Below the pieces are notes generated by a model, which made no database searches, was not told the DNA's origin, and worked only from the letters and a program-made list of their open reading frames with translations. Shown here in pieces: positions 48,621-62,311 of a stretch of DNA of 64,000 nucleotides. The stretch is from Truepera sp. GTDB taxonomy: Bacteria; Deinococcota; Deinococci; Deinococcales; Trueperaceae. The translations under genes and the position numbers were made by a program. Within the stretch, counting starts at the first letter, position 1; each line of letters starts with the position of its first letter. The stretch spans positions 2,464,001 through 2,528,000 of the forward strand of contig CBDCKW010000009.1 in NCBI GenBank assembly GCA_965218435.1. Direction: 5' to 3'.

Positions 48621-49817
48621 GTGGAACGACTTGCACTTATCGGGGTCTCGCACCGGCGCGGCGGCGCGGCGGCGCTCGAGGCGTGGCAAAACGCCTTTAG
48701 CCCTAAAGTTAACCCCCGGCAGACCCTCTCCCCCGCCGGTTTTACCGAGTGGGTCCCGATTATTACCTGTAACCGCTGTGACCTCGTGGTGGCGCTGCCT
48801 AAAGGAATGGACGCGCTGGGGGCGCGGCAGGCTCTAGCGGCGTACGCCCCCGAGTTTCGCCCCTACGCCTACACCGGTGACGGCGCGTTAGAGCAGCTCA
48901 TCCGCATTGCTACCTCGCTCGACTCACTGAATCCCGGTGAAGACCAGATTATGGCGCAGGTGCGGAGCGCGTTCTCGGCGGCGCAAGCTCTGGGGAGCAC
49001 CGGCCCGACGACGAACTTCGCCTTTCAGACGGCCCTTAAAATCGCCAAAAAAGTCCGCCGTGAGGTGGCGCTCGCGCCGCTGAACACGTCGCTCTTTAGT
49101 CTGGCAAGGCCCGAGTTGGAGCGCCGGTTGCCCCGTGGCGGCACCGTCGCAGTTCTCGGAGCCGGTGAGATGGGGTCACTGGCAGCGAAGGCTCTCGCAG
49201 CTCAGGAAAATATAGACCTCATCATCGTCAACCGCAGTGTAGAACGGGCACGGCAGCTCGCCAAGCTCTTGAGGGCAAAAAGCTCGTCGCTGGGGGCGTT
49301 TTTGGCGGCCCCGCCCCCGCTGGACGCGCTGGTCTGCGCCACGCCGGTACGCGGTCTGATTGACCGGGCGCTCGTTCAAAACCTGCCCGACCTCAAACTT
49401 ATCGTTGACCTGGGCGTTCCCCGTAACGTCGAAGAGGAGGTGTCGGGACTGCCCAACCTGAGCGTCCTCGATATTGACACCTTGCAAGACGCGGGCAAAC
49501 TGCGCCGCGAAACGCTGACTCACCGTCTGGCCGAAGCTGAAACGCTGCTTCAGCGAGAGTTAGAGCTGGCGCTGAGCGGCTGGGCTGAGCGGCAGCTCGG
49601 GCCGTCTATCCAAAAGTTACGGCAACAGTACCTAAACGCCGTTCACGACACGTTGCCCGGACTTTCACCGGCAGAGGCCGAACGTCTAGCCAACCGTTTT
49701 GTCCGTGTCCCGGTGCAGGGGCTGCGAGCTGTGGCGCGGACGCACGGTTTTGAGGCGGCCGAGACGTTTCTGGCTGAAACCGGAGTTCTTACGCAGGTGA
49801 CGCCCTATGACGCCTAG
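48621..49817 (+). CDS. hemA: Glutamyl-tRNA reductase
   Basis: GVSHR, TCNR, SLDS...GE.QI..QV, GAGEMG, VNRS, DLGVPRN. Confidence 0.93.
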   Translation: MERLALIGVSHRRGGAAALEAWQNAFSPKVNPRQTLSPAGFTEWVPIITCNRCDLVVALPKGMDALGARQALAAYAPEFRPYAYTGDGALEQLIRIATSLDSLNPGEDQIMAQVRSAFSAAQALGSTGPTTNFAFQTALKIAKKVRREVALAPLNTSLFSLARPELERRLPRGGTVAVLGAGEMGSLAAKALAAQENIDLIIVNRSVERARQLAKLLRAKSSSLGAFLAAPPPLDALVCATPVRGLIDRALVQNLPDLKLIVDLGVPRNVEEEVSGLPNLSVLDIDTLQDAGKLRRETLTHRLAEAETLLQRELELALSGWAERQLGPSIQKLRQQYLNAVHDTLPGLSPAEAERLANRFVRVPVQGLRAVARTHGFEAAETFLAETGVLTQVTPYDA

Positions 49818-50724
49818 CGGCCCCGTTCGGATTGCCACACGTAAAAGCGACCTCGCGCTCTGGCAGGCGAACTGGGTCAAGGCGCGGCTGGGGGCGCTCG
49901 GGCACCCTGCCGAACTCGTTTTGATCGAAACGCAGGGCGACCGCACGCAAATAGACGGCACCCCGTTTCGGCTAATGCCGGGGCAAGGGTTTTTTACCAA
50001 AGCGGTGCAAGACGCCGTGCTGGGGGGTCACGCGGACGTAGCGGTGCATTCACATAAAGACTTGCCCTCGGCGCGGCTGGCCGGACTCGAGCTGGCCGCT
50101 GTCTCTGAACGGGCCGACCCCAGAGACGTGCTGTTAGTTAAACCCGAAGCGTTTGACGCCGACGCCCCCGCACTGCCACTGCGAGAAGGCGTCACCGTCG
50201 GTACGAGCGCGGCGCGGCGGCGGGCACAGCTTGCGCATTTGAGGGGTGACCTGGAGGTTCAAGAACTACGCGGCAACGTGCCGACACGCGTACAAAAACT
50301 TCGTGACGGCGACTACGACGCAGTTTTGTTGGCGGCGGCAGGGCTTGCGAGATTGGGGCTTGATCTTTCGGGCTTGGAGGTCATCCCGTTAGACCCACAG
50401 CTGTTCGTCCCGGCCCCGGCGCAGGGTGCGCTGGCCCTCGAAATCCGCGCTACCAACTATGAATTAGCTTCACTTCTAACCGACCTGCACAACCCGGCAG
50501 CGTACAAAGCCGTCGCCGCCGAACGCGGGTTGATGGCAATGCTAGAAGGCGGCTGTCAGCTCGCGCTCGGCGCGTATGCAGCCCTAAAAGACGGTCAATT
50601 GGAGCTTACGGCGTGGTACGACGGCAACCGCGTGACGGTCTCGAATCCATCGTCGGAAGCGGCGGCGATGCTCGCCTATGACGCGCTGGGTCGCCCCGCC
50701 CCTATCTCTACGGCGCTCAAATGA
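49807..50724 (+). CDS. hemC: Hydroxymethylbilane synthase
   Basis: IATRKS.LALWQA, AVHS.KDLP, LRGNV.TR, LEGGC. Confidence 0.96.
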   Translation: MTPSGPVRIATRKSDLALWQANWVKARLGALGHPAELVLIETQGDRTQIDGTPFRLMPGQGFFTKAVQDAVLGGHADVAVHSHKDLPSARLAGLELAAVSERADPRDVLLVKPEAFDADAPALPLREGVTVGTSAARRRAQLAHLRGDLEVQELRGNVPTRVQKLRDGDYDAVLLAAAGLARLGLDLSGLEVIPLDPQLFVPAPAQGALALEIRATNYELASLLTDLHNPAAYKAVAAERGLMAMLEGGCQLALGAYAALKDGQLELTAWYDGNRVTVSNPSSEAAAMLAYDALGRPAPISTALK

Positions 50725-51407
50725 ACGTCTTGCTGACTCACAGCGAAGGACGGCTAGAGGGTCTAGCCCCCGCTTTGCAGGCACATAGGTTTAGCGTGAC
50801 GCATCAGCCCCTCATTTACACCGAGTTTTTACCCGCGCGTGAGGCTTACGAAGCGGCTGAAAAACTGTGCGGCGCAGACTGGCTGCTGTTCTCGAGCCGC
50901 ACCGCCGTTCAAGCGTGGGCCGCTTTAGGGCTATCTTTAGACACGTATACCATCGGCGTCGTTGGGCAGAAAACCGCTGACGAAGTAAAAAAATCAGGCA
51001 GGCTGGTCTCAATGTCAGCCAAACCCGAAAACGCTGAAGGGTTACTCGAGACCTTTTTGACGCAGGTTTCGCCGCCTTTAGGGGTCGGTCTCCCCTGCGG
51101 TGAGCAAGCCTTACCGACGCTCTCGATAGGCTTAGCCGACGCCGGTTTTACAGTGACCAAAGCCGCGCTTTACCGCACCGTCACGCGGCCCCTCACCCGG
51201 CTGGACGCCGACCTTATCGTGTTGGCGAGTCCGTCGGCAGTGGCCGCACTGCCCGAAACAATCGGTCGAACGCGGCTCGTCGCCCTTGGACCCAGTACCT
51301 ATCAGGCTGTCAGAAAACGCGGTTGGCACGCGGCTGAGGCTCAAACACCCGACGTTAGCGGCGTCGTTCGGGCAGTGCTCGCTACTACTGCACTCGAGAC
51401 CCGTTAG
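50721..51407 (+). CDS. hemD: Uroporphyrinogen-III synthase
   Basis: VLLT, FSS..AV, VG.KTA, Y.T, ASPSAV, LGPST; operon position. Confidence 0.88.
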   Translation: MNVLLTHSEGRLEGLAPALQAHRFSVTHQPLIYTEFLPAREAYEAAEKLCGADWLLFSSRTAVQAWAALGLSLDTYTIGVVGQKTADEVKKSGRLVSMSAKPENAEGLLETFLTQVSPPLGVGLPCGEQALPTLSIGLADAGFTVTKAALYRTVTRPLTRLDADLIVLASPSAVAALPETIGRTRLVALGPSTYQAVRKRGWHAAEAQTPDVSGVVRAVLATTALETR

Positions 51408-51414
51408 GAGATTT

Positions 51415-52470
51415 ATGATTCAGGATAAGACCGTTTCGCTCATCCAACGCCCCCGGCGACTCCGCACGACCGCCGCCCTGCGTGACCTCATCGCCCAGAC
51501 ACAAGTACGCCCGCAAGACCTGATTGCGCCTTATTTTGTCGTGTCGGGAACGGACGTCACGCAGCCTATTGGGTCACTTCCGGGCGTGTTGAGGCTGAGT
51601 CCGGATTTATTGCTGCGAGAGCTCGAGCGCGGCCTTAACCAAGGCGTCAAAGCAGCGATGCTCTTCGGCGTCGTTCCGGGAGAGCTTAAAGACGGCGGCG
51701 GCACGCACGCGCACGACCCGAACGGCCCCGTCGCGCAGGCACTCCGAGCTGCTCGCCGCGCCTTCGGCAACGATCTTGTTTTAATGAGCGACGTGTGTTT
51801 GTGCGGCTATACCGATCACAGACACTGTGGTCTGCTGCGTACGACCCCGCGCGGCGTGGTCATTGACAACGACCCCAGCTTGGCGGCTCTAGCAGAGATG
51901 GCCCTCGTTCACGCCGAAGCTGGCGTAGATATGGTCTCACCCTCAGACATGATGGACGGGCGCGTCGGCTATTTGCGCGGGGCGCTCGACCGGGCGGGGT
52001 TTCAACATACCGGTATTTTGGCCTACACGGTCAAATATGCGTCGGCCTTTTACGGCCCCTTCCGTGACGCGGCGGGTTCAACACCTAAAGGCGGCGGAGC
52101 TGAAGACGATACGGAGAACAACCTGCAGCCCCCGAAAGACCGTAAAACCTATCAGATGGATTTTCGCAACCCGCGTGAGGCTAGGCTCGAGGTCGCTCTG
52201 GACGAAGCCGAAGGTGCCGATATGCTGATGGTCAAACCGGCGTTGGCTTACCTTGACATCTTGTATCAGATGCGGAGGGCCAGCGACTTACCTTTGGTTG
52301 CGTACCACGTCTCAGGCGAGTACGCCGCGCTCAAAGCGGCGGCAGCGGCGGGCGCGCTCGACGAGGCAGCAGCGGTTTTTGAAAGTTTAACGGCGATCAA
52401 ACGGGCCGGGGCTGACCTGATCATCAGCTACTACGCGCTCGAGGCGACCCAAAAAGGTTGGTTAGGGTAA
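51415..52470 (+). CDS. hemB: Porphobilinogen synthase (Zn type)
   Basis: RPRRLR, DVCLC.YT.H.HCG, SDMMDGRV, MVKPAL.YLD. Confidence 0.97.
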   Translation: MIQDKTVSLIQRPRRLRTTAALRDLIAQTQVRPQDLIAPYFVVSGTDVTQPIGSLPGVLRLSPDLLLRELERGLNQGVKAAMLFGVVPGELKDGGGTHAHDPNGPVAQALRAARRAFGNDLVLMSDVCLCGYTDHRHCGLLRTTPRGVVIDNDPSLAALAEMALVHAEAGVDMVSPSDMMDGRVGYLRGALDRAGFQHTGILAYTVKYASAFYGPFRDAAGSTPKGGGAEDDTENNLQPPKDRKTYQMDFRNPREARLEVALDEAEGADMLMVKPALAYLDILYQMRRASDLPLVAYHVSGEYAALKAAAAAGALDEAAAVFESLTAIKRAGADLIISYYALEATQKGWLG

Positions 52471-52548: not shown

Positions 52549-53730
52549 GTGAAGCGTTCTCGTATTACCTCTAGACGTGTAACCCGGATCGCTTTCGTCG
52601 TTGTCGTGGTGTTTTTGCTCGCACAGGTGGCGTGGTGGTTGATCTTTCAGGGGCGCTACATCGAACGGGTCACCCAAACGACCGTCACTTCTTGGGAGCG
52701 TGACGCGAGCACAGCAAGTCAGCTCTATCAGGCGCAGCCGAAACCACCGGTTAAAGTGCAACTCTTAAAGGTGTACCCACAGCTAAAGTTTACGGCAGGG
52801 CGTTTCGTTGTCAATCCGGTACAGCTGAGCACCTTCCGCAACGAACAGCTGGGCCACTTGCGAATGTTCGCCTTTGAAGGCCCCTTTTACGCGCTGGTGA
52901 TTTTGGCCGGGCTCTATATCATCGGGCTGAGTCTGCGGGCTGAACGCGAGCTTAAAAAGCAGCAGAAAAACTTCTTAAATGCGGTGTCGCACGAGTTCAA
53001 AACGCCGATCAGCACGCTCCGGCTGCTCGTCGAAACGGCGCTCTACCGACCCCTAAAACCCGAAAAACAGCGCGACTACTTAGGCCGGATGGAGCGCGAG
53101 GTCACTCGTTTGGAGGCGCTGAGCGAGCAAATTTTAGCCTCAGCGCGGCTCGAGCACGCTCCGATGGTCCAAACGCTGACGCCTACCGACTTAAACAGTG
53201 TCGTCAAAAGAGCGGTCGAACGCGAACGGAGCGGCCTCGAGGCGCGCGGCGCACGGCTCGAAGTTTCTTATACCCCGGACGCTCTTAACGTCGCCCTCGA
53301 CCCTTCGGCGTTTGGAACGATTCTGGGCAATTTGCTCGACAACGCCGTCAAGTACAGCCCCGGCCCGGATAAAGTGGTGCGGGTCAGGCTCGAGGCGCAG
53401 CGCCATCTCGCGTTGGTTCACGTCGAAGATGAGGGCATTGGCCTAAGCGAGAGTGAAAAAGCACACATCTTTGACCCCTTTTACCGCGTCGGCGACGAGC
53501 TGACGCGCGCGACTTCAGGCGTCGGCTTAGGGCTGCATCTGGTGCGCTCGATGACCGAAGCGATGAACGGCTGGGTCCGCTGTGACGCGCCGCTCGACGC
53601 GCAAACCGGGCGCGGCAGCCGTTTTAGTATCGTTTTGCCGAGGCGTTCGGAGCAACCTGCACCTGCCCATCCCTTACCTGTAGATTCACCCGAAACGCGC
53701 TCCACACAACCGCGCACCCTGGAAAGCTGA
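52549..53730 (+). CDS. Membrane sensor histidine kinase (Leptospira HemK-like)
   Basis: Two TMs (WW; MF..EG), SHEFKTP H-box, NLLDNAVKY, G.GLGL. Confidence 0.92.
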   Translation: MKRSRITSRRVTRIAFVVVVVFLLAQVAWWLIFQGRYIERVTQTTVTSWERDASTASQLYQAQPKPPVKVQLLKVYPQLKFTAGRFVVNPVQLSTFRNEQLGHLRMFAFEGPFYALVILAGLYIIGLSLRAERELKKQQKNFLNAVSHEFKTPISTLRLLVETALYRPLKPEKQRDYLGRMEREVTRLEALSEQILASARLEHAPMVQTLTPTDLNSVVKRAVERERSGLEARGARLEVSYTPDALNVALDPSAFGTILGNLLDNAVKYSPGPDKVVRVRLEAQRHLALVHVEDEGIGLSESEKAHIFDPFYRVGDELTRATSGVGLGLHLVRSMTEAMNGWVRCDAPLDAQTGRGSRFSIVLPRRSEQPAPAHPLPVDSPETRSTQPRTLES

Positions 53731-53739
53731 GTCCCCCCT

Positions 53740-54471
53740 ATGTTGACCCCGATGTCCTCCACCCCACCCCCGACCGTGTTGATTATCGAAGACGAAACGT
53801 CTATCGCCGACATCTTAGCGGACAACTTGCAAGACGAGGGCTACACGACGCTTTACGCCGCCGACGGGAGCAGCGGCCTGCGCTGCTGGCAAACCGAGCG
53901 GCCGAACCTGGTCATTTTAGACGTGATGTTGCCGCATCTTTCGGGCTATGAGGTCTGCCGCACCATGCGGGGGCGCGGCGACACCACACCGGTGCTTTTT
54001 TTAAGCGCCAAAGGTCAAGCCGATGACCGCGTGCAGGGTCTCCGGGCCGGGGGTGACGATTACCTCCCTAAACCCTTTCACCTCCCCGAATTTTTGCTCC
54101 GCGTTGAAAATATGCTGAGGCGTCAGCGTTGGGGTAGCAGGGGAGCCGCCCAGACGGGCGACGCACTTTATTTTGGGGGCCACAAGGTCAACTTTCGAAC
54201 CTGGACGGCGACGCTCTCGAATGGTCAAGACGAGCCTTTAAGCGAACGCGAGCTTAAAATCCTCAAACTGCTCAGTCAGCGGCGCGGCGAGGTCGTCAGC
54301 CGTGACGACATTTTAGATACTGTCTGGGGCGACGACGCGTTTCCGAGCAGCCGGACGGTGGATAATTTTGTGGTGCGGCTCCGGCGACTCTTTGAGCCCG
54401 ACCCGGCAGAGCCCCGCTATTTTCATACGGTGTGGGGTGTCGGCTACCGTTTTACCCCAGAGGGCACCTGA
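53740..54471 (+). CDS. OmpR/PhoB-family response regulator (Leptospira HemR-like); start may be 53752
   Basis: IEDE, LDVMLP, KPF, RTVDNFV.RLR, TVWGVGYRF. Confidence 0.94.
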   Translation: MLTPMSSTPPPTVLIIEDETSIADILADNLQDEGYTTLYAADGSSGLRCWQTERPNLVILDVMLPHLSGYEVCRTMRGRGDTTPVLFLSAKGQADDRVQGLRAGGDDYLPKPFHLPEFLLRVENMLRRQRWGSRGAAQTGDALYFGGHKVNFRTWTATLSNGQDEPLSERELKILKLLSQRRGEVVSRDDILDTVWGDDAFPSSRTVDNFVVRLRRLFEPDPAEPRYFHTVWGVGYRFTPEGT

Positions 54472-54761: not shown

Positions 54762-55166
54762 GTGCCCTACCTGCTCGACACGAACATCTGCGTCTATATC
54801 ATCCGCGGTCGGCGGCGGGAGGTCGTCGAGCGGTTTCAGCAAAGTGCACTGAGTGACCTGCTGATCTCGAGCGTTACGACCGCTGAACTTTACTTCGGTA
54901 TTGAAAAGAGCGAGCGACGAGAACATAACCTGGAAGTTTTGGAGGCTTTCCTTTTACCCATCACGGTGCAGCCTTTTGAGGGCGGCGCGCCTAAGGTCTA
55001 CGGCAAGCTCCGGGCAACCCTCGAGCGCCAAGGCACACCCATCGGCCCACTCGATACCCTTATCGCGGCTCACGCGCTGAGTTTAGGGGCGACGCTCGTG
55101 ACCAACAACACCCGCGAATTTGAACGCGTCCCTGAGCTAAAGCTCGAGGACTGGACACGTTCGTAG
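54762..55166 (+). CDS. vapC: VapC PIN-domain toxin
   Basis: YLLDTNI, AEL.FG, D.LIAAHA, LVTNN.REF.RV. Confidence 0.94.
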   Translation: MPYLLDTNICVYIIRGRRREVVERFQQSALSDLLISSVTTAELYFGIEKSERREHNLEVLEAFLLPITVQPFEGGAPKVYGKLRATLERQGTPIGPLDTLIAAHALSLGATLVTNNTREFERVPELKLEDWTRS

Positions 55167-55206: not shown

Positions 55207-56232
55207 ATGAGCCTCTTTTTAGACGCCGCGAACGGCGAGAACACCGCCCATGCTCCCATCTGGATTATGCGCCAAGCCGGACGCTACTTGCCCGAATACC
55301 GCGCACTCAAAGAAAAACATACCTTCTGGGAGCTGTGCCGCACACCGGAATTAGCTGCGGAGATTACCCTGCAACCCATCCGCCGGTTTGGGCTCGACGC
55401 CGCGATCTTATTCCAAGACATCATGACGCCCCTGCCGCCGATGGGTTTAGACATTGACTTTACCCCCGGCCCGGTTTTTAAGACGCCGGTCCGCAGCGCC
55501 GACGCCGTAAACAAGCTCGTCGTTCCTGAGCAAAACGAGATTGCGCCGTATGTTGCTGAGGCCATCCGGCTGATTCGCGCCGAAAGTCCGGTGCCTTTAA
55601 TCGGCTTCGGCGGCGCACCGCTGACGCTCGCAACTTACGTCGTGCAAGGCGGCAGCAGCAAAGACTACGACGAGTTTCGGCAGTTTTTACGCTACGCGCC
55701 TGAGACGGCGCACAAACTTTTGGGAAAACTTACCGAAGTCTCGATTCGTTACCTCGAGATGCAAATAGAAGCTGGCGCACAGGCGGTTCAACTGTTCGAC
55801 TCGTGGGCCGGACTTCACGACGCCCGCACCTACAGGGAGTTTGCTAAACCCTACAACACCCGTATCTTTGAAGCTCTGGCTGACTACGGCGTCCCCCGTT
55901 TGTACATTGCGGTAGACGCGCTGCACCTTTACGGCGAAATTAAAGACCTACCGTGTGAAGTCGTCAGTGTGGACTGGCGCGTGCCGCTCTCGCAGGTGCG
56001 CCCGCTCCTGCCCGGAAAGGTGCTCCAAGGCAACCTCGACCCGGCGGTGTTGCTCGCGCCGGAGAAAGTCATGCAAAGGGAGACCGAACGCGTTTTACGC
56101 GAAGGGTTGGGCGGGCCGCATATCTTTAACTTGGGTCACGGCATCATGCGGCAGACCAACCCGGAACGTGTAACGCAGCTTCTCGAGGTCGTGCGGGCGT
56201 TTGACCGAGCTGAGGTGGCCGAACGTGTCTAG
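55207..56232 (+). CDS. hemE: Uroporphyrinogen decarboxylase
   Basis: PIWIMRQAGRYLPEY, QLFDSW, QGNLDP, FNLGHG. Confidence 0.97.
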   Translation: MSLFLDAANGENTAHAPIWIMRQAGRYLPEYRALKEKHTFWELCRTPELAAEITLQPIRRFGLDAAILFQDIMTPLPPMGLDIDFTPGPVFKTPVRSADAVNKLVVPEQNEIAPYVAEAIRLIRAESPVPLIGFGGAPLTLATYVVQGGSSKDYDEFRQFLRYAPETAHKLLGKLTEVSIRYLEMQIEAGAQAVQLFDSWAGLHDARTYREFAKPYNTRIFEALADYGVPRLYIAVDALHLYGEIKDLPCEVVSVDWRVPLSQVRPLLPGKVLQGNLDPAVLLAPEKVMQRETERVLREGLGGPHIFNLGHGIMRQTNPERVTQLLEVVRAFDRAEVAERV

Positions 56233-57154
56233 GCGTGAACGTGTAGTAGAAGTCTTTCAAAAAGGTCAAGCTGAGCTGATTGCGGCATTTGAGTCTTTGG
56301 ACAGCACGGCGAGCTTTGGCCTGCACAGCTGGGAGCGGCCTGGGGGCGGGGGGGGAACAGCAAGGGTTTTAGAAGGCGGGTGCGTCCTCGAGCGCACCGG
56401 GATCAATTTCTCCGCTGTTCACGGCGACGCCGTACCCTCGAGTCTCGCCGCAGCTCACCCCGGCAGTGAAGGCAAACCCTATTTTGCCACCGGTTTATCC
56501 ATGGTCTTTCACCCGCGCAACCCCTACGCCCCGGCGTTTCACGCGAACTACCGCTACTTTGAAGTCGGCAGCGAGGCGGACGAGAGCGACATCTGGTGGT
56601 TCGGCGGTGGCGCGGATATGACGCCGAACTACCCTTTTGCCGAGGATATTATTCACTTTCACCGAACGCTCAAAGCGCAGTGTGACCGGCACCTGGTTGG
56701 TGATTACAGCACACTTAAAAAGACCTGCGACGATTACTTTTACATCAAACACCGCCGTGAGATGCGCGGCGTCGGCGGGATTTTTTTCGATGAACTTTCG
56801 CCCGTCGGCCAAAACGACTTCGAGACCGACTTTGCCTTTATCCAAGACGGCGTGCAGACGCTGCTCGAGCTTTATCTGCCCATCCTCGAGCGCCGCAAAG
56901 ATACCGTTTACGGCGAACGCGAACGGCAGTGGCAACTTTTACGGCGCGGACGCTACGCTGAATTTAACTTGGTGTACGACCGGGGGACGACCTTCGGCCT
57001 GCAAACCGGTGGGCATATCGAAGCGATCTTGATGTCACTGCCGCCCTACGCGCACTGGGCCTTTGATGTTCAGCCCGAAGCAGGGTCGCCCGAAGCGGAG
57101 ATGCTGAATTACCTACAACCACGGGATTGGGTGGGCGAAACCGAACTTGTTTAA
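56225..57154 (+). CDS. hemF: Oxygen-dependent coproporphyrinogen III oxidase
   Basis: W.RP.GGGG, HP.NP..P..H.NYRYF, WWFGGG.D, RGVGGIFFD, RRGRY.EFNLVYDRGT.FGL. Confidence 0.96.
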   Translation: MSRRERVVEVFQKGQAELIAAFESLDSTASFGLHSWERPGGGGGTARVLEGGCVLERTGINFSAVHGDAVPSSLAAAHPGSEGKPYFATGLSMVFHPRNPYAPAFHANYRYFEVGSEADESDIWWFGGGADMTPNYPFAEDIIHFHRTLKAQCDRHLVGDYSTLKKTCDDYFYIKHRREMRGVGGIFFDELSPVGQNDFETDFAFIQDGVQTLLELYLPILERRKDTVYGERERQWQLLRRGRYAEFNLVYDRGTTFGLQTGGHIEAILMSLPPYAHWAFDVQPEAGSPEAEMLNYLQPRDWVGETELV

Positions 57155-57214
57155 GCCCAAAAGATTGGTCTGCTAAAGGGCATACGTCCTGTAGGGCGGC
57201 GGGTAAAATACGGT

Positions 57215-58357
57215 ATGGATCAGAGCAGCACGACTCAAGGCCCCACTGGAATCGTAATGATGAACTTGGGCGGCCCGAAGACGCTTGACGACGTAAGGCC
57301 GTTTTTACTCAAGCTCTTTGAAGACCGCGAAATTATTCAGCTCCCCGCGCAGCGATTTCTAGGGCCGTATATCGCCAAACGGCGGACTAAAAGCGTTCAG
57401 CAAAAGTACGATGAGATCGGCGGCGGCTCGCCTATCTTGGCGTGGACGGAGGAGCAGGGGCGCGGCATGTGTGAACGCCTCGATAAGCTGTCGCCGGAGA
57501 CCGCGCCGCATAAATTTTACGTGGCGTTTCGTTACGTGCATCCGTTTAGCGAAGACGCACTTCGGCAGATGAAAGCCGACGGGATCAAACGGGCCGTCGC
57601 CTTTACGCAGTACCCACAATTTTCGTGTTCGACGACCGGCTCGTCACTCAACGAACTCTGGCGGGCGGCGAAAAATGTCGGTTTGCAAAACGACTTCGAG
57701 TGGAGCGTCATAGACCGCTGGCCGACGCACCCACGTTTTATCGAAGCGATGACGGAGACCGTCAAACAGGGATTGAGTCAGTTTACCGAAGCTGAACGCG
57801 ACGACGTTTTGATCCTCTTTAGCGCCCACTCGCTGCCCCTAGACGTCATCAACCGGGGCGACGCCTACCCCGCCGAAATCGGCGCGAGCGCCCACGAAGT
57901 GATGAAACGCCTTGGCTACAGTCACGAGTACATGGTCAGCTATCAGTCGGATGTGGGGCCGGTACCGTGGCTCGGGCCGAGTACGGAAAAAGTCATCGAA
58001 TCTTTGGGTGAGAAGAAACGGCGGAATGTGCTGGTCGTCGGCATCGCGTTTACCAGTGACCACATCGAAACGCTGCACGAACTCGACATCGAATACGGCG
58101 AAGTCGCGCACAAAGCCGGAATCACCAACTTCAAGCGGGCACCGGCCTTAAACGGGTTGCCGGTTTTTCAAGACGCTTTAGCCGAAGTTGTTCTTGAACA
58201 TCTGCAGAGCGGCGAGGCGTGCAACAAGCAGTACGGGCTGCGCTGCGCGGGCTGCGTCAATCCGCAGTGCCGCAATATCTTAAATCCGGTGGCACCGTAC
58301 AAACGCACCAATGTGAGTATGTCCAAAGAAACCAAGCAGTATAAAGCTGCACTTTAA
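57215..58357 (+). CDS. hemH: Ferrochelatase, animal/fungal-like with [2Fe-2S] Cys motif
   Basis: NLGGP, IGGGSPI, YPQFSCSTTGSS, FSAHSLP, WLGP, FTSDHIETL.ELDIEY, C-terminal CAGCVNPQC. Confidence 0.96.
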   Translation: MDQSSTTQGPTGIVMMNLGGPKTLDDVRPFLLKLFEDREIIQLPAQRFLGPYIAKRRTKSVQQKYDEIGGGSPILAWTEEQGRGMCERLDKLSPETAPHKFYVAFRYVHPFSEDALRQMKADGIKRAVAFTQYPQFSCSTTGSSLNELWRAAKNVGLQNDFEWSVIDRWPTHPRFIEAMTETVKQGLSQFTEAERDDVLILFSAHSLPLDVINRGDAYPAEIGASAHEVMKRLGYSHEYMVSYQSDVGPVPWLGPSTEKVIESLGEKKRRNVLVVGIAFTSDHIETLHELDIEYGEVAHKAGITNFKRAPALNGLPVFQDALAEVVLEHLQSGEACNKQYGLRCAGCVNPQCRNILNPVAPYKRTNVSMSKETKQYKAAL

Positions 58358-58413: not shown

Positions 58414-58968
58414 ATGCTCGAGTTTTCTTTACCTACCATGTCGGTCGAAGAATACCTGGCGTGTGAACAAAAAGGCGACGTTCGCCATGAATACGTCAAT
58501 GGTTATGTCTACGCTTTGGCAGGTGGCACCAGTCGCCATAACCGTATCTCTCTAAACATTGCTGCCCACTTTTTGCAGCTGGCACAGAGCAAACCGTGCC
58601 GCGTCTACCAAGAAGGCATGAAACTTCGCACCGAAGACAACGTTTTTTACTATCCGGACGTGATGGCAGTCTGCGGCAAACCTGAACCCGACCCTTTTTT
58701 TGAAACCGAACCGTGCGTGTTGGTCGAAGTTTTGTCACCGAGCACCAAAAACACCGACCTACGCGAAAAACTGACCGCGTACAAAAGCTTGCCGAGTGTG
58801 CAGACCTATCTGATTGTCGAGGCTGAGCGGCTGGCGGTGCGGCGGTTTTGGGTAGATGATACGCGCCGCTGGCAGCAAGAAGACCTGACCGGCGACGGCG
58901 ATATCCCGCTGCCTTGTCTGGACGGGGTGCTGAGTTTGCCGCAGATTTACCGAAATGTTTTTAGCTAG
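58414..58968 (+). CDS. Uma2 family endonuclease
   Basis: RHEYVNG...A.AG....H, YYPDV, VEVLSPST...D..EK. Confidence 0.92.
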   Translation: MLEFSLPTMSVEEYLACEQKGDVRHEYVNGYVYALAGGTSRHNRISLNIAAHFLQLAQSKPCRVYQEGMKLRTEDNVFYYPDVMAVCGKPEPDPFFETEPCVLVEVLSPSTKNTDLREKLTAYKSLPSVQTYLIVEAERLAVRRFWVDDTRRWQQEDLTGDGDIPLPCLDGVLSLPQIYRNVFS

Positions 58969-58976
58969 CAGCGTGT

Positions 58977-59390
58977 TCAGCTAAAAGGGTTTTGTACCTG
59001 TACCCCTGCAACGACCTGACCTGCATTTAGGTCTTCCGAGTACAGAACCTCACACCCTAAACGTGCCGCACTGGTGAGAATCATTGCGTCCCAGAACGAA
59101 ATAAGTGTCTCTTGGTGGAGTTTGATAGCGCTTATTACATCCAAGGCTGTCGGCTCGTGAACAGTCCAGTGCGTGTAGCGTTCTACAAGTTGACTTGCAG
59201 CTACCGGCGTGAGCAACTGTTTTCCGGTCGTAACCGTGTAGAATTCTTGCAGTACTTGTACGCTTAAACCGCCCTCAAATGACTCCCAGAGGTTACGCAC
59301 GAGCGCTGCAGCCTGTTCACGCTTTTCTCCTGCAGAAGTGTCGTGCGCGTAAACCAGTACATTGCTATCAATGAACGCCTTAGCGCTCAT
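58977..59390 (-). CDS. PIN-domain toxin
   Basis: FIDSNVLVYA.D, QVLQEF, SFWDA.I, LYSEDL..GQ...NPF. Confidence 0.9.
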   Translation of the reverse strand: MSAKAFIDSNVLVYAHDTSAGEKREQAAALVRNLWESFEGGLSVQVLQEFYTVTTGKQLLTPVAASQLVERYTHWTVHEPTALDVISAIKLHQETLISFWDAMILTSAARLGCEVLYSEDLNAGQVVAGVQVQNPFS

Positions 59391-59622
59391 GCAGTTCGTC
59401 CCTCGTCCAGCTCGCTTTGCCGTAAGTGCCTAGATTATAGCCCTGCTCGAGCGCAGCCAGCGCCTCTCTTTTAGCACGGGCGTAGTCGCTCTCGTCGGCG
59501 ACGAGCGCCTCGAGCTTCTCCCGCAACATCGCCGAAACCGATGTACCCCGCTTCGCCGCAATAACTTTAACCTCTCGGAGCGTTTCTTCGGGCAGTGCTA
59601 GGGTAATATTTCGCATCGCCAT
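59380..59622 (-). CDS. RHH/CopG-type antitoxin
   Basis: RNITLAL.......K..AA..GTSVS, WTRDELHER; upstream TTACGTG direct repeats flank a TACACT -10. Confidence 0.85.
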   Translation of the reverse strand: MAMRNITLALPEETLREVKVIAAKRGTSVSAMLREKLEALVADESDYARAKREALAALEQGYNLGTYGKASWTRDELHER

Positions 59623-59673: not shown

Positions 59674-62311
59674 CTACAAATCCCCGAAGAGCCCGGACTG
59701 CGCGCCTGCTTCCCTCACTTCAGGCGCTTTACGCTCCGCGTCCGTTGGGATAGGAAAATCCGCCGCCGCAAACACCTCGCCGGAGACGACCGCCGCCAGT
59801 TTTTCCGAAAGTTCAGGCCACGCCGCTACCGTCGCCTCGAGCACCCACAAAAGTTCTAAGAGTTCCCGCGTCAGCTCCGCCGTCCAGCGTTCGGGGCGAA
59901 TTTTATCGAGGTCAGAGGACGAGCGCCCCGCCCGCTCCCGCATCCGGTAGCCGAGCCAGCTTTTTACCACGCTCAAGCCCGATACCGAGAATGCCCACAC
60001 CTCCGGCGAGACCGGGCCAAACTCACCCGCGCCCACGTGCAGCGTTTTGCTCTCCGGGTCATACGAAAAATCGTTGGGATACGCTTCCGGCGCGTTCGGC
60101 ACCGCCACTGTGTTACGCGCTTCACCTCGCGGCACGCTGCCGCCGAACCGTTCGCCGCCCAGCCTTTCACCATAGGTGTGTAGCCCGATGAGCGAACGCC
60201 CAAGTGCCGCCACTTCACCAAAGAGCGCCGCATCTTTTGTCACCGGCAGACGCGGCCCCGGCAGCACCAGCTCTTCAGAAAATGTTTCGACGTAAGACGG
60301 CGAGGCCAAAAGCCTGTAAGCGTAGGCGAAAAAGTCTTCGGGAGAGACCGCAAAGTCATACGTTTCTGCCAGCACGTCTAAAAGCCCCGCTGTAACGTTC
60401 GGTTCAGAGGCCGCCGCATCCCGCCAGAGGGGAACTGCTCGACCATTACGACCATGAAAATAGTTCATGTCGGGAACGTAAGCAGATACGGAAGCACCAG
60501 GGCCGACACCTAGAACTTCAGTAAACAGAGTCGTCATGAAAACCTGCTTTGCACTGTATGTGTACCAAAGGTCATTACGAAAACGGTCAGCAAAGCGCGT
60601 ATCTGCATATATCCATTGCTTATCAAAACTGCGAAAGCCATAGCACGTTATCGGCGGAGGCGGGGCATCTTGCGGCAACGAAGCTAAAGCAGGCGCTCTC
60701 GAGCCGTCCAGATTTTCGTAAACACCGCTCACTTTGCGGGCACCTGTTTCACGGAATAGTTGGGCTCGTCTTTCCGTGGAAGCTGACAAAAATGTCTTCC
60801 AACGTTGCACCAGAACGTCTTTTATCTCAGAAATCGGCCAACTACACTTAAGCTGTGACCCTGAGTGCTGCCACGGAAACAAATCGGTTAAAAAAGGCCA
60901 ACTATGGTAATCGCCTGTACCTTCTGGCAAAAACGGAGCTTTCCAGTCTAAAAAGCAGTCTTGCCACGTCACATTACTGAAGCTTTGAATCTGGGTGAGT
61001 TGCTCGAGCTTTCCTTCTTTCGTTCCTTCTAATTTCGCGTAATGCACCTTCGCAGGTTCATCCGGTTTCGGTTTCCCGTACCGCACACCTACGGCAATCG
61101 CCACGGGCGTCTGGATGTTAAAGACGTTTTGCGTCTTGCATGCGCCTAAGCTGTCGCCTTCCAAATCCAAAATCCACAGCTCGTCGAAGGTGCGGCGCAG
61201 GTGTTCGCGCATCCCGACAAAACCGGGGCCGCGCAGGTAGCTGGCGGCGGTAATAAACGAGATGATGCCCGCGTCCTGCGGCTGCTCAAAGACTTTCCAA
61301 AGCGCCCAACGCCAAAAGTAGACATAATCGTTGTACAAGTTTTTGATGTGCCCGCCCTGACCGGCGTCCACGGCGGGTTGCGTAAAGTCTTTTAAGATGC
61401 CGTTCGTTTGGTCGTTTAGGTTTTGCTGACCAAAACGCACCCAACCGCCTTTAAGTGCCACTTTATTTTTGAGGTCGTCTTTATCGCGCGTTTGCCGGTC
61501 GTATGGCGGATTGCCGATGCAGACCAAAACGCGAGTGTCTTGTTTGACCTCTCTAGCGCGGCGGTGTTCTTCGGTCAGGCGGCGGTACATGAGGCCGTGC
61601 TGCTCCAAGTCTCTGGCTTCGGGGGACTCGAGGGTGTCCGCCAGATAGACATGCACCCCGTCGGCGGGTAGTTCGCCGCCCTCTTCCATCACCTTTTGCG
61701 TCACGCGCAGGTGCGCCACCGCGTAGGGGCCGACGAGAAACTCTAACGCGTGCAGGTTTTGCGCGACCTTCGTGGCGTACTGGCTCCGCATTCCGGGGCC
61801 GTAAAACTCGGCGACGTTCTCTAAGGCGTGTTGCAACACTGCGAGCGGATACGCGCCGGTTCCGGCTGCCGGGTCGAGCACCACGACATCATCTTCAGCG
61901 TAGGCCAGGGGTTTGTCGAAACGGGTTTCTAAAAGTTCAGCGACGAGTCGCACCTGCGCTTGAATGACCGGCGCGGGCGTGTAATAGACGCCGTAATCGT
62001 TGCGGAGACGGCGGTCATAGGCAGCCAAAAAGTCTTCGTAAAAATAGAGCTATAGGTCAGGGCCATTAGGCCCAGGCACTGAGTGCCTAACCTGGGGGTC
62101 GTTGCCTTCTTTGCTCAGGGCTGCCGGGTCTACGGCGGTGATGGTCCGAATCAACGTCTAAACCGACACCCACGTCGCGGCGGGCCTCACGGTCGCTTAA
62201 AATCACCAGCGTTTGGGCGAGGAGACCGTGACCGGACTCGAGGGTTTCGGCGGCCCGTTCGGGCCGGACGTTCTCCGCGCCGCTAAAGCGGGTCAAAAGG
62301 AGCGCGTAGGT
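59674..62311 (-). pseudogene. Fused restriction-modification enzyme (Type IIG/ISP-like N6-adenine MTase plus TRD), 5'-truncated with frameshift and TAG
   Basis: GVYYTP, LDPAAGTG, IGNPPY; upstream DL*LYFYEDFLAAYD with TAG at 62050-62052, frameshift near 62150, similarity ends at TYALLL near 62311. Confidence 0.85.

Follow-up and report, generated by a model that had tools for sequence, protein, structure and literature searches.

Why should a bacterium of the Trueperaceae carry, at the end of its heme operon, a ferrochelatase that resembles the human mitochondrial enzyme far more closely than it resembles ordinary bacterial HemH? The gene, hemH, lies in a stretch of 64,000 nt of Truepera sp. 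DNA (the window), and the features of the locus are collected in Table 1. The initial annotation of this DNA described the product as a ferrochelatase of the animal or fungal type, and offered two origins for it: transfer from a eukaryote to a bacterium, or a place in a clade of bacteria that lies near the source of the opisthokont enzyme.

Table 1. Features of the hemH locus, in positions of the window.
Feature	Position	Strand	Basis or remark
hemA-hemC-hemD-hemB block	48621..52470	+	hemC and hemB above cut-off; hemA and hemD best matches below cut-off
Sensor kinase and OmpR-type response regulator, within the hem operon	52549..54471	+	profile matches
PIN-like toxin gene (presumed), inside the hem operon	54762..55166	+	
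hemE, uroporphyrinogen decarboxylase	55207..56232	+	TIGR01464 379 bits, over cut-off; 68% to HemE of G014
hemF (CgdC), oxygen-dependent coproporphyrinogen oxidase	56201..57154	+	NF003727 389 bits, cut-off 297
-10 element TAAAAT (TANNNT), 5 nt before ATG	57204..57209	+	conserved in orthologous loci; probable leaderless promoter (putative function)
hemH/ppfC, predicted eukaryote-type protoporphyrin ferrochelatase	57215..58357	+	380 aa with a C-terminal extension and without mitochondrial presequence
Cys138, predicted internal cluster ligand (human C196)	57626..57628	+	PDB alignment
His205, catalytic histidine (human H263)	57827..57829	+	PDB alignment; invariant in 95-sequence alignment
Glu285, pi helix (human E343)	58067..58069	+	PDB alignment; invariant in 95-sequence alignment
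C344-x2-C347-x4-C352, predicted C-terminal cluster ligands (human C403/C406/C411)	58244..58270	+	PDB alignment
Uma2-like gene (presumed), 3' of hemH	58414..58968	+	no NCBIfam match
Second PIN-like pair (presumed), 3' of hemH	58977..59622	-	
DNA methyltransferase-like ORF (presumed)	59674..62028	-	

The product belongs to the class II chelatases as a ferrochelatase (HemH), both by profile cut-off and by its catalytic His and pi-helix residues. It scores 361.9 bits against the TIGR00109 equivalog, for which the curated cut-off is 124.6, and 370 bits against PF00762, for which the genome (G000; 4.8 Mb, rated 100% complete) has no other full match. In a sequence search of the PDB, human FECH scores 449 bits over residues 10-354 with a single 1-residue gap, and yeast ferrochelatase 358 bits, whereas the CpfC proteins of Bacillus and Listeria reach 107-138 bits in alignments that begin only at residue 56-61. 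The N-terminal lip region is present in the hemH product and absent from the CpfC matches. The near-colinearity with human FECH noted in the initial annotation is borne out by these scores. An AlphaFold2 model built from a 95-sequence alignment (pLDDT 95.4) matches human FECH in Foldseek with a TM of 0.89, an rmsd of 1.3 Å and 55% identity, and a search of the ESM Atlas returns ferrochelatase clusters exclusively.

When human numbering is anchored on the titles of PDB mutant entries (M76, H263, F337, H341, E343), the aligned residues of the hemH product and the human enzyme are N17/N75, R106/R164, Y133/Y191, H205/H263, F279/F337, H283/H341 and E285/E343, and the position of human M76 is occupied by Leu18. 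Every motif quoted in the initial annotation is found in the ORF, including the C-terminal CAGCVNPQCR, and C138, C344, C347 and C352 align to C196, C403, C406 and C411 of the human protein, which we take to be the [2Fe-2S] ligands of FECH. By alignment, then, the window's enzyme has the complete human ligand set of one internal and three C-terminal Cys positions. The available part of PMC9133952 describes this pattern of ligation and the catalytic residues. All four Cys occur in 119 of the 120 nearest homologs and in 78 of the best 80 of at least 579 matching GTDB stretches (75 by pattern and three by eye; one further locus is cut and one lacks them). In a set of 119 bacterial proteins related to that of Anaerolineaceae, the tail and the internal Cys occur together in 103 and are jointly missing from 11, one has the Cys alone and four were unparsed; the joint loss in the 11, which are close kin and possibly reflect one or two events, fits a common ligand role. 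The hemH product is thus predicted, from sequence, to bind a [2Fe-2S] cluster on C138/C344/C347/C352. P0283 (locus L124) and ten other Anaerolineaceae-related members of the clade, in which both this internal Cys and the tail are missing, would be natural cluster-less controls.

The substrate of the enzyme is best approached through its operon. The hem cluster of the window runs hemA-C-D-B, kinase, regulator, hemE, hemF and, last, hemH, and many Trueperaceae loci have hemE-hemF-hemH, often followed by hemY. The hemA-hemC-hemD-hemB block is common to other Deinococcota and has the identical order in a locus of the neighbouring family f3 (L157, genome G014), which reads hemA-C-D-B-kinase-regulator-hemE-chdC-cpfC-hemY and in which the front genes are 39-67% identical to those of the window. 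Comparison of the two gene orders indicates that hemF and ppfC occupy the slot of chdC and cpfC in the same operon skeleton. Trueperaceae, L157 and two Myxococcota loci (L070 and L089) all have the kinase and OmpR-type regulator in this position, and the embedded pair may regulate heme synthesis. Both Myxococcota loci (L070, 1-5107, and L089), which come from bins, contain a Deinococcota-like hemC-kinase-regulator-hemE-hemH block at 56-62% identity, and either cassette transfer or mis-binning could account for it.

Gene content across the phylum agrees with a change of pathway. The genome of the window encodes HemF and HemY, the latter outside the hem cluster; a PF06778 search detected no ChdC/HemQ, with positive Thermus and Deinococcus controls, and no HemJ match was obtained. 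In a survey of 301 Deinococcota genomes, 102 from Trueperaceae and 198 from four other families, ChdC was found in 1/102 Trueperaceae versus 181/188 genomes of the neighbouring families f2-f4, and HemF in 71/102 versus 0/188; because the surveyed genomes are kin, these counts describe one or few events. A host that has CgdC and the protoporphyrinogen oxidase HemY and lacks ChdC must metalate protoporphyrin, so that the window's enzyme is, by the logic of the protoporphyrin- and coproporphyrin-dependent routes as given in the available part of PMC8529089, a PpfC. It has neither of the marks of CpfC, namely co-occurrence with ChdC and a short N-terminal region without the lip, and its substrate is most likely protoporphyrin IX. 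Taken together, the gene contents suggest that Trueperaceae replaced the coproporphyrin-dependent route to heme by the protoporphyrin-dependent one.

Two observations run against so simple a replacement. In genus g8 of the same family the eukaryote-type ferrochelatase is present in 9/14 genomes but HemF in 0/14, and ChdC also in 0/14. The one Trueperaceae genome with ChdC, G237, has an ordinary ferrochelatase in the operon chdC-hemE-hemY-cpfC and no HemF; its HemE is only 45% identical to that of the window, so that this pathway may be re-acquired rather than retained. In family f5 (G255, G272, G273, G188 and G243; L159-L163), ChdC is found in 0/10 genomes and HemF in 7/10, with a different ferrochelatase that is 24-28% identical, which is apparently a second, independent route switch in Deinococcota. 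Two loci of the actinomycete Streptantibioticus (L097 and L107) contain a hemC-hemA-hemF-hemE / hemH-hemY cassette for the protoporphyrin route, and G305 has ChdC elsewhere as well; both heme routes possibly exist within one Streptantibioticus genome.

The gene shows the marks of its host. The -10 element proposed for it, TAAAAT, is present where it was described, and a TANNNT hexamer lies 5-7 nt upstream of an in-frame ATG at 24 of the 34 Trueperaceae loci that could be parsed, out of 36 examined (two have no ATG), versus 3.4% of random ATGs; a generic sigma-70 scan did not call the TAAAAT of the window. Because the conserved TANNNT follows the leaderless pattern of the Deinococcus-Thermus type, for which the -10 motif is described in the available part of PMC12340547, hemH probably bears a host expression signal. 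The initial annotation was also right that hemH contains no CTCGAG, but the absence is meaningless as a signal: 8% of random 1143-nt windows of the genome have none, the neighbouring response-regulator gene has none, and 12 orthologous hemH genes have 0-4 sites. Since the GC3 of hemH (0.685) equals that of its neighbours, these figures give no sign of recent arrival, and the missing CTCGAG was rejected as an indication of foreign origin. In the window and G000, CTCGAG itself behaves like a highly iterated palindrome: it is 6.1-fold above the dinucleotide expectation, with 9,883 sites or one per 486 bp, and the commonest 8-mer is GCTCGAGC. By contrast, only 2-8% of the expected number of sites is found for GGCGCC, GGGCCC, TTTAAA and AGGCCT.

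The 120 nearest homologs, bar one arachnid sequence, are 77-99% identical to the window's enzyme, and those with a taxon label are Trueperaceae or Deinococcota, among them Truepera radiovictrix (82%). Of the 102 Trueperaceae genomes, 86 have a ferrochelatase match and 85 have the eukaryote-type enzyme (identity 66-98%; contig ends truncate some of them, and one of the 85, G251, is unpublished); G237 alone has an ordinary enzyme, 32% identical to that of the window, and 16 gave no match with the window's hemH as query. The best match in the four other Deinococcota families (198 genomes) was no better than E 8e-49. An enzyme found in 85 of 102 genomes of a family is neither a one-off nor a chimera, and a chimeric contig, which the initial annotation had wished to see excluded, was rejected because synteny is kept in many genomes; contigs of read set X1 also bridge the hemF-hemH and hemH-downstream junctions with no differences, although X1 and X2 are possibly the source sample itself.

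Outside the family, the eukaryote-type enzyme occurs in several other groups, where it is patchy. The best 80 of at least 579 GTDB stretches, which are 60-93% identical to the window's enzyme, comprise 45 from Gemmatimonadota, 18 from Deinococcota, five from Chloroflexota (Ca. Chloroploca, Ca. Roseilinea and Anaerolineaceae), two from Myxococcota, two from Streptantibioticus and eight unlabelled; Alphaproteobacteria are absent from these 80. Counting the centre genome in each case, the type occurs in 20/151 Gemmatimonadota genomes (one of them, G358, unpublished) and in 5/201 genomes of the class of Ca. Roseilinea. In one Gemmatimonadota locus (L150; G435:C5:255500-264500), a ferrochelatase and hemY (46% identity) adjoin a chdC-hemE-cpfC-hemY operon. 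Oomycetes and other protists score like animals against the hemH product, so the type is pan-eukaryotic; the label of animal or fungal type holds in so far as the enzyme is of eukaryote type, and is too narrow beyond that.

The phylogenetic position of the enzyme was assessed with eukaryotic sequences taken from a 50%-representative search and from one search with a protist-like query. Named eukaryotic rows are Cherax, Spodoptera, Naganishia, Aureobasidium, Fonticula and oomycetes; the others were assigned from presequence-like N-termini, intron read-through or tree position, and some rows grouped with Gemmatimonadota or Chloroflexota were assigned likewise. The outgroup consists mostly of bacterial sequences without a taxon name and includes no named alphaproteobacterium. 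In a FastTree analysis with sparse sampling, the hemH product already falls outside the ordinary HemH of Deinococcota. In the main tree (IQ-TREE, LG+C20 PMSF; 366 columns and a selection of 64 of the 311 rows, with a bootstrap that had not fully settled), mitochondrial FECH and its bacterial relatives form an in-group with support of 99/97 (SH 97 in quick runs), apart from other bacterial HemH. Within the in-group the eukaryotes are a single clade (95/94), with opisthokonts at 99/99 inside it, and this clade lies among bacteria. Ca. Roseilinea adjoins the eukaryotes at 89/65, and the same grouping has SH 94 and 95 in quick runs of 106 and 67 rows. Trueperaceae fall in a 97/96 clade with 11 rows of the Gemmatimonadota group, Myxococcota, Streptantibioticus and Ca. 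Chloroploca, and since they nest among Gemmatimonadota their immediate donor was most likely a bacterium. Three divergent bacterial-looking ferrochelatases with Cys tails (P0137, P0139 and P0147) vary in placement between trees, P0139 and P0147 standing at the base of the eukaryotic clade or inside it depending on the run.

A clade of Trueperaceae with opisthokonts was rejected by AU tests on amino acids (p 1.6e-5 and 3.7e-6; 0.0025 and 0.009 with Fonticula; 0.0014) and not after recoding to four letters, under which no hypothesis is rejected. FastTree with sparse sampling placed Trueperaceae as sister to the eukaryotes, and that position for Trueperaceae, as sister of all eukaryotes, was rejected (AU p 7e-5 to 0.015) after the sampling had been widened with other bacteria. 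The constrained tree that groups eukaryotes with Ca. Roseilinea was the best in all three amino-acid AU sets containing that constraint. Constrained IQ-TREE runs were fast searches from one seed (three for recoded data) with noise of 5-20 log units, as in some cases a constrained tree had a higher likelihood than the free one.

The joint reading that we regard as likely is that the window's enzyme is a PpfC of the FECH clade, acquired from a bacterial donor in a swap of pathways within the operon, and that the eukaryotic enzyme itself probably came from the bacterial radiation. The protein would be the working PpfC of its genome, in a clade of scattered bacterial enzymes and the mitochondrial ones of animals, fungi and many protists, and it would use the H205/H283/E285 network to metalate protoporphyrin IX with Fe2+ in the way that the human enzyme does. 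The ancestor of most Trueperaceae would have taken ppfC from another bacterium, related to Gemmatimonadota; ppfC and HemF would then have entered the native hem operon and displaced chdC and cpfC, and heme would be made from uroporphyrinogen through HemE, HemF, HemY and PpfC. The bacterial members in Chloroflexota, Gemmatimonadota, Myxococcota, Trueperaceae and Streptantibioticus would constitute a radiation that is most likely the source of the eukaryotic enzyme, and the Trueperaceae proteins would be cousins of eukaryotic FECH and not its closest kin. The root of eukaryotic FECH is therefore more likely to lie in bacteria, and we infer the direction of the transfers from the trees. A bolder proposal, which we advance tentatively, is that the mitochondrial enzyme of animals, fungi and most heterotrophic protists, with its four-Cys [2Fe-2S] site complete from the start, reached the eukaryotic ancestor from this mobile bacterial lineage (Chloroflexota, with Ca. 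Roseilinea closest, Gemmatimonadota, Myxococcota and Trueperaceae) and not from the alphaproteobacterial symbiont, and that the same gene drove the family-wide heme switch of Trueperaceae. The rarity of the type in the proposed source groups, as counted above for Gemmatimonadota and the class of Ca. Roseilinea, speaks against the preferred reading. Of the two origins offered initially, a bacterial clade near the origin of eukaryotic FECH, not specific to opisthokonts, has the better support, and transfer from a eukaryote gives way to a gene that is family-wide, ameliorated and most likely derived from another bacterium.

The same enzyme and the same swap would also follow if the bacterial clade arose by one ancient transfer from an early eukaryote, a protist, to a bacterium and then spread among Gemmatimonadota, Chloroflexota and Trueperaceae. 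This is unlikely but deserves weight, because the distribution is patchy in every phylum except within Trueperaceae, the bacterial branches are short, and trees with bacteria inside eukaryotes are not rejected: nesting all bacteria beside the sequences P0154 and P0487 never was (AU p 0.07-0.48), and placing them next to opisthokonts or to the oomycete-containing group could be rejected with one PMSF guide only (p 0.006-0.009; otherwise 0.06-0.15). FastTree with all 311 rows also placed the bacteria as one clade (support 0.95) beside P0154/P0487 (support 0.34). In addition, GARP content is 0.32-0.33 in the outgroup and most in-group bacteria versus 0.26 in eukaryotes, and this shared GC-rich amino-acid make-up could pull the root towards the bacteria. 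Against such an origin, every unconstrained IQ-TREE search, recoded or not, roots the in-group among bacteria, and the eukaryotes are one clade in the main tree (95/94), although the recoded free tree nests the eukaryotes in bacteria weakly (56/67) and changes their sister to Myxococcota; most in-group bacteria also have Leu at the position of human M76, which is conserved in eukaryotes according to the available part of PMC9133952.

It is rather improbable that the bacterial and eukaryotic clades are sisters descended from an unsampled bacterial ancestor, in which case no living phylum could be named as donor. Bacterial monophyly is not rejected (p 0.08-0.57) and has the FastTree support just mentioned, and heavy transfer between bacteria blurs the donor, but the likelihood of this arrangement is below that of eukaryotes with Ca. 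Roseilinea, a grouping that recurs across runs. Direct transfer from an animal or fungus to Truepera can be dismissed as extremely improbable, and so can a chimeric contig with eukaryotic contamination, since the support from 55% identity and colinearity with human FECH and from recoded data is outweighed by AU p values below 0.01 on amino acids, 60-76% identity to other bacteria, the host-type promoter and GC3 and, above all, a distribution over most of the family, often in the same operon, that refutes both.

The clade to which the preferred reading assigns the enzyme has been published. In the available part of Nagayasu et al. (2013; PMC3596385), a 'blue' clade unites Gemmatimonas aurantiaca with metazoans, fungi, Capsaspora, oomycetes, amoebozoans and ciliates. 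The window's clade is like it, in that loci labelled Gemmatimonas are 63-65% identical to the window's protein and share the four Cys, and differs from it in extent: the part seen of that study has a single bacterial member and no Truepera in its list, whereas here the clade reaches into five phyla or more and has become almost fixed in one family, along with a change of pathway. The Cys triad of the window fits the motif CX(1,11)CX(1,11)C of Weerth et al. (2021; PMC8529089), the available part of which reports a C-terminal motif in one of two Gemmatimonadetes and in none of five Deinococcus-Thermus species, with no Truepera sampled, calls the role of the cluster undefined and suggests that the eukaryotic motif came from the mitochondrial ancestor; the lack of Alphaproteobacteria among the best 80 of at least 579 GTDB stretches differs from that proposal. 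Neither Truepera nor Gemmatimonas is mentioned in the available parts of PMC4870792 and PMC13564367, and in that of PMC13468126 Myxococcota are given as a major donor to LECA and Chloroflexota as a minor one, with ferrochelatase treated only at the level of its pathway. The pathway swap of Trueperaceae and the wider bacterial radiation were not found in print, nor was any account of ferrochelatase or the heme pathway in Truepera or Trueperaceae, which may yet appear in tree figures or subscription papers. A review of the history of the haem pathway by Koreny and colleagues from 2022 reportedly may show these bacteria in its trees.

With the CpfC of Deinococcus and Thermus, which is only 25-37% identical, has no Cys tail and always occurs with ChdC, the window's enzyme shares the operon slot after hemE (as in L157). 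Trueperaceae would present a clean, family-wide swap of heme pathways inside one operon, with G237 keeping the old route or having regained it, and the five-phylum radiation supplies the sampling with which the origin of eukaryotic ferrochelatase can be rooted, and suggests a source other than the mitochondrial ancestor. A close known counterpart is human FECH (PDB 1hrk, 2qd3), with which the enzyme shares 55% identity, the fold including the tail, the catalytic residues and the pattern of one internal and three C-terminal Cys; it differs from the human protein in having no presequence, Leu at M76, a glutamate-route operon (HemA) and about 25 extra C-terminal residues, which are closer to protist than to animal tails. 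The named and cultured Truepera radiovictrix, with an 82% identical enzyme, would be a close bacterial stand-in for human FECH, and if the prediction is true, a culturable bacterium with a human-type cluster, together with natural relatives that lack it, would allow the purpose of the cluster to be tested.
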